Below are positions 2,897 to 25,279 of a stretch of DNA of 31,686 nt, piece by piece. Positions within the stretch are counted from its first letter, which is position 1, and each line of letters starts with the position of its first letter. The notes below the pieces were generated by a model. That model was not told where the DNA came from and made no database searches. It saw only the letters and a list, made by a program, of their open reading frames with translations. The translations under genes were made by a program, and so were the position numbers. Source of the stretch: Candidatus Falkowbacteria bacterium CG10_big_fil_rev_8_21_14_0_10_43_10 (GTDB lineage: Bacteria > Patescibacteriota > Patescibacteriia > Patescibacteriales > XYC2-FULL-47-12). The stretch lies in NCBI GenBank assembly GCA_002773655.1, contig PFAR01000024.1, forward strand, positions 25,986 to 57,671, read 5' to 3'.

Positions 2897-3055
2897 ATGG
2901 GGGAGGATAAGATAATTTATGAGAGACTATCGTACGAAATAGTAGGCGCTTGTTTTAAAGTACATAAATTGCTTGGCAGATTCTGCAGGGAAAAACAGTA
3001 TTATGAATATAGAAAAATGGCAAAACATAGTCGGTATGATAAAGGACCAGTTTAA
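2897..3055 (+). pseudogene. Truncated GxxExxY protein (N-terminal ~35 aa only), absent from the ORF track
   Basis: Translates MGEDKIIYERLSYEIVGACFKVHKLLGRFCREKQY, aligning with IYPRLSYKIVGILFDVFNELGYGYQEKFY of the 24492 protein; it then runs out of frame into the next gene and stops at 3053-55. Confidence 0.8.
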
Positions 3056-23864: not shown

Positions 23865-24446
23865 ATGCTGACAAAACTTTTTTCATCTCAAGTGAGGGTT
23901 AAAATATTAAAATTTTTAATAATGCACAGCGAACAGAGCTTTAGCGCCGGAGAAATTGCCGGCGGAACCGGCTCCGCTATCCGCAGCGTAAATAAGGAAA
24001 TCGACAAGCTCCTAGAGGCGGGAGCGGTGATTGAAGAGCTGCAGACCATCCAAGTCAATAAAAAAGCCGTCAAGGTAAAACATTACCGCGTCAATAATAA
24101 CTTTGTAATTTTTGACGAAGTAAAAAATCTTTTCATTAAAATGCAGACGCTGGATTCAGAAGATTTCCGCGAAAAGATGAAAAAGAGCGGCAAGATTAAT
24201 TATGTTGTTTTAACGGGCAACTTCGTCGGCAGCAAGGAATCCGCGATAGACTTGCTTATTGTCGGCGGCATCAGCCATAAAAATTGTGAAGGAATAGTCA
24301 AGAGTTTTGAAAAAAAGATCGGCTGGGAAATAAACTGGACGCTGATGGACCTGCCGGAATACGACTACCGGCAAAAGATTGGCGACATGTTTCTCTATGA
24401 ATTAATGAAAAGCCGGAAGATAGAGTTAATCAGTAAATTCGTTTGA
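23865..24446 (+). CDS. Winged-HTH regulator fused to a degenerate nucleotidyltransferase-like domain
   Basis: LFSSQVRVKIL..F, EIA...G..IRSVNKEIDKL (wHTH); VVLTGNF...SAIDLLIVG (MNT-like). Confidence 0.78.
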   Translation: MLTKLFSSQVRVKILKFLIMHSEQSFSAGEIAGGTGSAIRSVNKEIDKLLEAGAVIEELQTIQVNKKAVKVKHYRVNNNFVIFDEVKNLFIKMQTLDSEDFREKMKKSGKINYVVLTGNFVGSKESAIDLLIVGGISHKNCEGIVKSFEKKIGWEINWTLMDLPEYDYRQKIGDMFLYELMKSRKIELISKFV

Positions 24447-24448
24447 TT

Positions 24449-24940
24449 ACTACAAATTACAAATTAAGTACAAATATACAAATAATTTTTTATGTTGCTT
24501 TATCAAAAGGAGGGTGTTGAGGTTATTTACCCAAGACTAAGCTATAAAATTGTTGGAATATTATTTGATGTATTTAATGAGTTGGGCTACGGTTATCAGG
24601 AAAAATTTTATGAGCGGGCGACAGAAAAATATTTAATAAAAAGAAATATAAATTATCAAAAACAAAAGGGGCATAAAGTTTATATAAATAGGGAATTTAT
24701 CGGTATATATTATTTAGACTTTTTGATAGATGATAAGATTATTTTAGAGCTGAAGAAAGGCAATTATTTTCCTAAGCAAAATATAGATCAAGTTAATGCT
24801 TATTTGCATGCCACCGGTTTAAAATTAGGGATACTGGCAAATTTTACCTCTACCGGAGTTAAATATAAACGTTTATTAAATATTAAATAGATTATAAAAT
24901 TGCAGATTTGTATATTTGTATACAATTTGTAATTTGTAGT
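24449..24940 (+). mobile_element. Putative mobile element: GxxExxY gene bounded by 35-bp inverted TACAAAT-array repeats
   Basis: Left arm 24449-83 and right arm 24906-40 are reverse complements at 32 of 35 positions. Confidence 0.7.
24492..24890 (+). CDS. GxxExxY protein (PD-(D/E)XK nuclease superfamily, PDDEXK_3-like)
   Basis: LSYKIVG, ELGYGYQEKFY (GxxExxY), LDFLIDDKIILELK (D...ExK), QVNAYL, GILANF. Confidence 0.92.
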   Translation: MLLYQKEGVEVIYPRLSYKIVGILFDVFNELGYGYQEKFYERATEKYLIKRNINYQKQKGHKVYINREFIGIYYLDFLIDDKIILELKKGNYFPKQNIDQVNAYLHATGLKLGILANFTSTGVKYKRLLNIK

Positions 24941-24949
24941 GATAATTAT

Positions 24950-25279
24950 ATGAAAAATCAACAAGAAGTTATCCAGCAAATCGCCGATCAAATAATCGCC
25001 GCCGCGGGAGCCGATAAGATGCCGGAGGGGGCGAAAGCGGCTTTCCGGGAAAATCTGGAGGCGCAGATTATGCGGCGACTGGGCTTGATTATTATCAAAA
25101 ATTTAGACGAGGAAGGCTTAAAAGCTTATGAAAAACTAACTGAAGCCGCTCCGGTTCCCTCCGTCGGCGAGATGCAGAGCTTTCTTGAGCAGTATCTTCC
25201 GGATTATGAGGAAAAAGTAAAAGCGGGTATGGATGAATTTATGGCGGAAATCGCCGGGCATCTTAATAAAAAGAGTTAA
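24950..25279 (+). CDS. Small acidic helical protein, DUF5663-like (start MKNQQ at 24950)
   Basis: G.DKMP..AK..F.E.LE.QI..RL..II..NL.EE...AYEKL...FLEQYLPDYEE pattern recalled for CPR DUF5663 proteins. Confidence 0.7.
   Translation: MKNQQEVIQQIADQIIAAAGADKMPEGAKAAFRENLEAQIMRRLGLIIIKNLDEEGLKAYEKLTEAAPVPSVGEMQSFLEQYLPDYEEKVKAGMDEFMAEIAGHLNKKS

Follow-up and report, generated by a model that had tools for sequence, protein, structure and literature searches.

A GxxExxY nuclease gene between inverted heptamer arrays in a Falkowbacteria genome: a likely gain-and-loss cassette of gene junctions

The cassette, its nuclease and further copies in the same genome

The window, a stretch of 31,686 nt (G000:C54:25986-57671), comes from the 901-kb genome of Candidatus Falkowbacteria bacterium CG10_big_fil_rev_8_21_14_0_10_43_10, labelled G000; the other G labels designate genomes of its relatives, and L labels designate loci. 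It contains a cassette of about 0.5 kb (window 24446-24943) in which a gene of the GxxExxY family lies between two 38-nt inverted arms. Cassettes of this kind likely form a discrete family that is gained and lost at gene junctions and has cognate arms and gene-less copies. The features of the locus are as follows (ORF, open reading frame):

23865..24446, + strand: upstream host gene, winged-helix regulator-like, 193 aa; ORF with a weak HTH_20 match (E 5e-4), stop codon touching the left arm
24446..24483, + strand: left arm; YAC terminus followed by four TACAAAT units grouped 2+2, inner spacer TAAG
24492..24890, + strand: GxxExxY (PDDEXK_3) gene, 132 aa; PF13366, TIGR04256
24906..24943, - strand: right arm; four TACAAAT units, inverted, inner spacer TGTA (minus strand)
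24950..25279, + strand: downstream host gene, DUF5663, 109 aa; profile match E 1.1e-6

The cassette occupies the whole gap between the regulator-like gene and the DUF5663 gene. Its left arm overlaps the last base of the regulator-like stop codon (24446), and its right arm stops 6 nt short of the start codon of DUF5663 (24950). The initial annotation, made from the sequence alone, had placed the unit between these two codons, and the ORF coordinates agree. It had also described 35-nt arms, reverse complementary at 32 of 35 positions, built of TACAAAT and enclosing the GxxExxY gene alone, a description borne out by a repeat search and the ORF list. The repeat search extends the arms to 24446-24483 and 24906-24943 (89% complementary, separation 422 nt); over the 35 nt, all three mismatches fall within the inner spacer. 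Each arm contains four exact TACAAAT units, with unit starts at 0, 7, 18 and 26, and the sole ORF between the arms is the 132-aa gene. Exact TACAAAT occurs 13 times in the window, versus 6.5 ± 2.8 expected from shuffles; eight occurrences are inside the arms (four per arm) and five are singletons. The GC content is 25% within the cassette versus 41-44% in the operon on both sides of it. No target-site duplication was found at the cassette, in agreement with the initial annotation, and consensus scans of the cassette gave no terminator-like site and promoter-like sites no commoner than in shuffles. When the RNA of 24440-24950 is folded, the minimum-energy and centroid structures both pair the arms, and the predicted stem of 20 + 16 pairs closes the ORF (z = -3.5). 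As a chance control, inverted repeats were scored in the flanks of all 770 G000 ORFs of 90-220 aa. Scores averaged 8.7 (standard deviation 2.0, 99th percentile 14.8); the window GxxExxY gene, with a score of 28, ranked first.

The encoded protein matches PF13366 (E 4.8e-26, 91.9 bits, cut-off 22) and TIGR04256 (E 3.1e-26, 92 bits, cut-off 35). PF13366 is its sole Pfam match, and it is neither an HUH/Y1 (PF01797) transposase nor a GIY-YIG (cd10448) nuclease. Residues G32, G34, E37, Y40, D76, E86, K88, Q100 and Y104 are invariant across phyla in alignments of 12 and 69 sequences; G34, E37 and Y40 form the GxxExxY motif, and the PD-(D/E)XK catalytic residues, including D76, E86 and K88, are all present. 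The AlphaFold2 model (predicted local distance difference test score, pLDDT, 90.4) has a restriction-endonuclease-like alpha/beta fold, Cas4/RecB-like in character. Its best PDB match in Foldseek is Cas4 SSO0001 (E 7e-5, TM 0.55), and other matches are lambda-exonuclease-like proteins, tRNA splicing endonucleases, the homing endonuclease I-Bth0305I and Hjc; a PDB search with the protein sequence found no relative. Because the catalytic residues are invariant, the model is confident and its fold neighbours are nucleases, the window protein is very probably an active nuclease. Compared with the L238 copy, which is 88% identical, the ratio of non-synonymous to synonymous substitution (dN/dS) is 0.07, and the protein is under strong purifying selection, with its catalytic motif intact. 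The defence-system models of PADLOC gave only Cas4b at E 0.009, the PHROG phage families gave no match, and no close relative of the protein was found in viral contigs; an identity as a defence system or phage family was dropped on account of the weak Cas4b match and the lack of PHROG matches. GxxExxY/PDDEXK_3 proteins are very common, and a survey gives the function of the family as unknown (Steczkiewicz et al. 2012). A full-text literature search on GxxExxY, PDDEXK_3, PF13366 and TIGR04256 returned incidental mentions and the 2012 survey, and no paper linking the family to repeats.

G000 has three PF13366 genes, all bracketed by arms, with different units in each. The arms of the C34 gene consist of CACGGAT-type units, and two gene-less palindromes of the same type lie one on each side of a neighbouring LemA-like gene (L001 1861-1989 and 2583-2689), which suggests local spread of arms into neighbouring junctions. 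The C6 gene has arms of alternating TGCAAAT and CTACAAA units, with a Translin-like gene on one side and a type II/IV secretion ATPase gene on the other. The TACAAAT element also has gene-less copies. The initial annotation had taken empty arrays elsewhere in the window for non-autonomous derivatives. This did not hold within the window, which has no other TACAAAT array and whose other period-7 arrays are built of different units, resembling the arms around four-helix-bundle genes in relatives. Gene-less TACAAAT copies nevertheless exist in G000, all three outside the window (C42:19179-19242, C44:8305-8374 and C54:5785-5868). They lie between genes, have YAC...GTR termini, eight units and the spacing of the cassette, and differ in their spacers; their loops measure 0, 4 and 18 nt, their DNA folds into hairpins with z of about -9 to -10, and no target-site duplication was found at any of them. 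The total number of TACAAAT arms in G000 is 8, and period-7 arrays of many unit types number 141 in this 0.9-Mb genome. Elsewhere in the window, at 2897-3016 (+), there is a truncated N-terminal remnant of a second GxxExxY gene, of about 40 aa, which matches the L170 protein at 67% identity (tblastn E 2e-9). Units of GCGAAT/ACGAAT type come before it, and it reads into the next gene; it represents a cassette of the hetero-unit clade that has decayed.

Cognate arms and turnover of cassettes at gene junctions

The association of GxxExxY genes with inverted arrays extends well beyond the window. PF13366 is encoded in 22 of 41 genomes of the same family or order, and arms scoring at least 16 flank 41 of the 46 relative GxxExxY loci with enough flank. 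The flanks are thus strongly enriched for arrays, and the positions of the genes are not fixed; both results are in line with the mobility proposed in the initial annotation. Arms scoring at least 15 were found at 52 of 72 metagenome relatives of the window protein and at 39 of 74 loci from many other phyla; many sub-threshold loci of the latter set still show an AC[AG]CNGAT unit, often behind a common terminus, ATAGAAC. CACAGAG units make up the arms of plasmid-borne GxxExxY genes from Bacteroides and Bernardetia. Within the family, cassettes measure about 0.45-0.6 kb and their arm units 7-9 nt. The arms take the form [u1 u2]-spacer-[u3 u4], usually with seven or eight of the eight units identical per element. 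Between elements the units vary: TACAAAT, TACGAAT, TTCAAAT, GCTAAT, or TGCAAAT alternating with CTACAAAT. Mapped on the protein tree, unit type requires 25 changes versus 32.2 in shuffles, and none of 200 shuffles was as low. Unit type thus follows the nuclease clade; such clustering would also arise from linkage of gene and arms.

A search for the exact TACAAAT arm with free spacers found 52 arms in 15 of the 41 genomes, versus none for the reversed pattern. Such arms are present in 12 of 22 genomes with PF13366 versus 3 of 19 without (p = 0.02, kin not being independent). Genomes G006 and G009 each contain about 30 gene-less hairpins that match the arms of gene-bearing copies at 90-100%, including the spacers, and have loops of 3-4 nt or of a recurrent 21-nt sequence. 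At loci L218-L237 of these two genomes, the 21-nt loop is conserved (TCTAATAWTAATATTTATAGC), and its last five bases are those just inside the right arm of a gene-bearing copy; hairpins with this loop are compatible with an origin by internal deletion. Among the gene-less copies of G006 and G009, spacer or unit variants are altered on both arms jointly (CAGC/GCTG, CCAC/GTGG, CATC/GATG and CAAGT/ACTTG), from which it follows that the arms pair or template each other at some stage. In an acidobacterial genome, the conserved terminal 19-mer occurs in 19 copies (reversed control 0) versus three genes.

Comparison between loci delimits the unit. Two copies in G009 are homologous over 484 nt (85%), with the homology ending at the outer arm ends and the flanks unrelated. 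The C6 copy of G000 has only about 520 nt in common with copies in G003, G001 and G010, which are mutually syntenic at another locus. Relatives 77% identical to the window protein, the closest after L238, have TACAAAT arms and lie between RNase T-like and thioredoxin genes; their cassettes likewise touch the stop and start codons of the neighbours. Filled and empty sites were found twice within one genus, where G040 has 450 nt (C9) and 594 nt (C12) at junctions that measure 21 nt (C2) and 47 nt (C5), respectively, in G017. At the second of these, G017 has an ATGA in which the stop codon of one host gene overlaps the start codon of the next, and the upstream ORF of G040 runs into the arm and stops there; the overlap suggests that the compact state may be the older one. 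G000, used as outgroup to polarise both pairs (insertion or precise loss), does not retain the synteny. Because homology between loci is limited to arms and gene, and congeners differ by filled and empty sites, the cassette is likely a discrete unit of gain and loss. Target-site duplications were seen neither at five copies of G006 and G009 nor at the two filled/empty pairs.

Three other junctions have exchanged contents. A cassette of G009:C39 is represented by other array elements in G006:C19 (flanks 93% identical), and one of G003:C20 by unrelated GC-rich palindromes in G008:C17 (flanks 96% and 85%) and in G010:C61. At the third, the GxxExxY cassette of G017:C6 (L179) corresponds to a cassette around a four-helix-bundle gene in G040:C44:17876-18351 (L328). 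The latter is followed by a solo right arm of TGCAAAT/TGCGAAT type, such as might be left by the partial overwriting of an older GxxExxY cassette. As for two further sites, the contigs of the G013 orthologue of L021 break exactly at the element, and a search for the G002 orthologue of the L018 site gave no match. The initial annotation had regarded gene and arms as an autonomous selfish element. Inter-locus homology and the filled/empty sites uphold a single discrete unit of gain and loss, with autonomy, and binding of the heptamers by the nuclease, still conjectural. Empty sites were thus recovered in congeners as two pairs, and none of the relatives examined has a clean empty allele of the window's own junction. 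New here are the filled/empty and swapped junctions in congeners, identical arms around different content at one orthologous junction, a TACAAAT arm with invariant units and free spacers across an order, and a negative wobble test (below).

Relation to known systems

Ssn is a GIY-YIG nuclease whose gene is flanked by NTS/SRM repeats, which are cut as single-stranded DNA (Chenal et al. 2025, PMC11893778). It resembles our cassette in several ways: a small single-domain nuclease gene has its own hairpin-forming repeat on both sides, the repeat is dispersed genome-wide, repeat variants go with nuclease variants, and gene and repeat co-occur in genomes. However, the GxxExxY fold is PD-(D/E)XK and not GIY-YIG (cd10448). 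Its arms are arrays of four short units, whereas an NTS is one hairpin motif; copy numbers are in the tens rather than the hundreds, and the GxxExxY gene and its arms are gained and lost as one unit. The repetitive extragenic palindromic (REP) sequences, REPINs and their RAYT genes (Di Nocera et al. 2013, PMC3733652) are similar in that a single gene is bracketed by inverted cognate repeats, and in having gene-less inverted doublets that fold as hairpins, are mostly intergenic and lack target duplication. RAYT is an HUH/Y1 transposase, which GxxExxY is not, and REPs are single palindromes rather than arrays of units. Moreover, G000 has true RAYT-like genes with other, GC-rich palindromes.

ORF-bearing intervening sequences (IVSs) of 23S rRNA offer another parallel. 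Such an IVS (e.g. that of Coxiella burnetii, PMC4990558) is an insert of about 0.4-0.7 kb whose small ORF is closed by a stem of inverted ends; in the window insert, the predicted fold pairs the arms. The IVS ORF family, PF05635, has heptamer-array arms in the genomes studied here and can replace a GxxExxY cassette. By contrast, the window insert lies between protein-coding genes and not in 23S rRNA (helix 25 or 45), its ORF is a nuclease, and the mismatches of GxxExxY arms lack the signature of an RNA stem. Terminal inverted repeat (TIR) transposons such as Tn7 and Mu have several protein-binding sites per end, and miniature inverted-repeat transposable elements (MITEs) are their gene-less derivatives. 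Inverted ends of repeated, binding-like units and short gene-less derivatives are likewise found here. The cassette differs in that no DDE, serine, tyrosine or HUH transposase lies inside (the only ORF is PF13366) and no target-site duplication is present in the copies and pairs examined. PD-(D/E)XK homing endonucleases exist as well, such as I-Ssp6803I. They resemble the cassette as small nuclease genes present or absent at the same site in relatives, again without target duplication; at the window junction, GxxExxY is present in G000 and L238 and absent in G010, G003, G008 and G002. Unlike them, the GxxExxY gene is not in an intron or intein and brings its own repeat arms. In outline the cassette resembles Ssn/NTS, RAYT/REP and IVS elements, and it is a member of none of these, since its fold is different, it has no HUH enzyme and it does not reside in rRNA.

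Mechanism and competing explanations

The best explanation as a whole, which we favour tentatively, is a cassette family combined with a nuclease that recognises its own arms. The nuclease, probably oligomeric, would recognise the unit repeats both in its own arms and in the gene-less copies. A cut at or between the arms would then be followed by host repair or recombination, by which the cassette would be copied, kept or exchanged. The mode would be like that of a small nuclease with its own dispersed repeats (Ssn/NTS, RAYT/REP) rather than classical transposition, and the gene-less hairpins would be derivatives or partners of the cassette with identical units. The specific step, namely that the nuclease reads and cuts the arm units and thereby drives spread, is possible and somewhat doubtful. 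Pairing between arms calls for a match of each left unit with its right counterpart and not for identical units in one arm; such identity, together with freely varying spacers, would be explained by a repeated sequence-specific binder. Where the two arms of a gene-bearing cassette mismatch, no wobble bias is seen (39 vs 34 in relatives, 47 vs 46 in other phyla), and transversions dominate.

Several observations weigh against this explanation. Four-helix-bundle genes (PF05635, IVS-type), which encode no nuclease, have inverted tandem-heptamer arms at 25 of 30 relative loci. They outnumber GxxExxY genes in these relatives, with up to 15 per genome of about 1 Mb, and their arm units differ from those of GxxExxY. 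A nuclease cargo is therefore not required for this build, which keeps alive a model with passenger genes, and the arms may be served by something other than their cargo. G005 has 16 arms yet no gene with strict TACAAAT arms. The ratio of gene-less copies to genes is 3:1 in G000, with divergent spacers, so there has been no recent burst in this genome. A PD-(D/E)XK nuclease of 132 aa is not known for strand transfer, and host functions would be needed. Finally, at the orthologue of the window's own junction, G005 (C1, L040 2083-2460) has TACAAAT arms at both ends with another small ORF inside.

The history of this last junction is complex. The order of a 753-aa gene, the regulator-like gene and DUF5663 is conserved in the family; orthologues of the regulator-like gene are found in 9 of 10 family genomes with conserved synteny, and DUF5663 is syntenic in G010, G005, G003, G008 and the metagenome contig of L238. 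The gap in G010, G003, G008 and G002 contains an ORF of about 65 aa, with neither arms nor GxxExxY. Between the G005 arms lie CACGCAA units, seven in perfect tandem, and an ORF of 67 aa, which occupies the position of the relatives' ORF and has a short P.DQAE.LR motif in common with it; the right arm is interrupted by a 36-nt GC-rich hairpin. Arms enclose GxxExxY in G000 and the L238 contig, where the small ORF is missing, and no other place in G000 has it. Near-identical strains were sought in metagenome contigs with a degenerate pattern for the 3' end of the regulator, which had no match. The L238 copy encodes a protein 88% identical to that of the window, whereas its neighbours are 56-65% identical. 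At synonymous sites the copy is somewhat less diverged between G000 and L238 than its flanks (0.71 vs 0.55, p = 0.003); at four-fold sites alone the values are 0.45 vs 0.30 (p = 0.14), all near saturation. These data fit both vertical descent and re-insertion. The tree of the 753-aa protein groups G000 with G005, G002, G010 and G003, excluding L238 (support 95/94, root unknown). The simplest reading of these sequences would be that the junction was occupied repeatedly and that, in G000, arms already in place received new content; a single ancient gain and several later losses are possible too.

Three other explanations deserve weight. The first, which we consider unlikely, is a host-serving partnership of the Ssn type, in which a site-specific, perhaps single-strand, endonuclease acts on heptamer arrays that are useful genomic tags (e.g. 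for DNA uptake or recombination), and the arms around the gene are merely the nearest tags. It has the binding and cutting step in common with the favoured explanation and differs from it in selfishness and in what does the spreading. The precedent is close, as Ssn genes have repeats on both sides in 42% of homologues and the enzyme cuts adjacent single-stranded DNA. The low dN/dS of the window gene, the identity of the L238 same-junction copy in excess of its neighbours and the co-occurrence of arms and gene among genomes would all suit a host function. However, the eight arms of G000 are few beside hundreds of NTS, the gene lies exactly between the arms, inter-copy homology stops at the arm ends, and turnover of cassettes between congeners is more in keeping with a dispensable element than with a host function that is maintained.

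The second and third explanations are both improbable in our estimate, more so than the first. An IVS-like RNA cassette would have an arm stem that lets RNase III excise the insert from the operon transcript, with the nuclease as cargo. The predicted RNA fold of the window cassette, the contact of the arms with stop and start codons of co-directional genes, the covarying spacer variants of G006 and G009, and the IVS-type four-helix-bundle family of like build, able to occupy the same junction, agree with this, and the Coxiella IVS is itself called a selfish element with an ORF (PMC4990558). Several features are nevertheless unexpected for an RNA stem: arm mismatches are mostly transversions without wobble preference on either strand, pairing needs no identity among the four units of one arm, and the inner spacers are unpaired in the window cassette and two of the three gene-less copies. 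The arrival of the DNA would be left unexplained by RNA processing. Under the passenger model, another enzyme or a replication or repair process moves or generates the hairpins, and GxxExxY and four-helix-bundle genes are alternative passengers of the loop. The existence of two unrelated cargo families with arms of like build, the majority held by gene-less copies, the abundance and diversity of period-7 arrays in G000 and the different inserts at the same junction in congeners all speak for such a process. It does not account readily for the tracking of nuclease clades by unit type; furthermore, no other candidate enzyme was found adjoining the arrays, and the Y1 (RAYT-like) transposase genes of G000 are flanked by GC-rich palindromes instead of heptamer arrays. 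Chance low-complexity repeats or ordinary promoter and terminator signals, brought to mind by the AT-richness of the element and the resemblance of TACAAAT to a -10 box, have a negligible probability and are refuted by the first rank among 770 ORF flanks, the reversed-pattern control (0 vs 52 arms) and the shuffle control on promoter-like sites, as well as by the lack of terminator-like sites in the scans and the recurrence of the build around GxxExxY genes across phyla.

A broader version of the favoured explanation, on the unlikely side in our judgement, would place GxxExxY and four-helix-bundle cassettes, as versions with different cargo, in a single undescribed class of mobile elements that reside at junctions. 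Their unit-array arms would be read by an oligomeric partner, they would replace each other by break and repair without target duplication, and their gene-less hairpins would constitute much of the unexplained heptamer-array DNA in small genomes of the Candidate Phyla Radiation (CPR) and beyond. Constant unit-array arms, gain and loss at junctions and gene-less hairpins together give GxxExxY a testable role, that of a sequence-specific nuclease partnered with its own repeats. If true, this would explain a noticeable part of the DNA between genes in streamlined CPR genomes, given the 141 period-7 arrays in 0.9 Mb. It would also add a third nuclease fold to the nuclease-plus-repeat partnerships, after RAYT and Ssn, and GxxExxY would be the first case of a PD-(D/E)XK enzyme shown to sustain a repeat family of its own. 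As with Ssn, enzymes of short, programmable-looking specificity could serve as tools.

Some further elements of these genomes were recorded. The second rank among the 770 ORF flanks of G000 (score 25.5) belongs to a four-helix-bundle gene at C16:29458-29811 (-), enclosed by inverted AAATCTA heptamer arrays. The Y1_Tnp (RAYT-like) genes of G000 lie outside the cassette, and the repeats around them are GC-rich palindromes of their own instead of heptamer arrays; RAYT was accordingly rejected as an unlikely mover of these arrays. One such domain (RAYT/IS200-like), at C49:14237-14590 (+), falls inside an open frame of 1084 aa, with GC-rich palindromes of 32 nt on its flanks, and may have been inserted in frame into a large housekeeping gene. 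A RAYT-like gene fragment at C18:16358-16525 (-) lies between copies of a 27-nt palindrome (GAGACGCATTGCAATGCGTCTCTACGT), the core of which appears again about 240 nt downstream, and is an ordinary REP/RAYT pair beside heptamer-array elements. Another family of GC-rich palindromes, with ends TGTCATTCCCGC...GCGGGAATGACA, is found at L318 2336-2441 (G008:C17) and also downstream of G000:C54:4544. These palindromes sit at junctions where congeners have heptamer cassettes.

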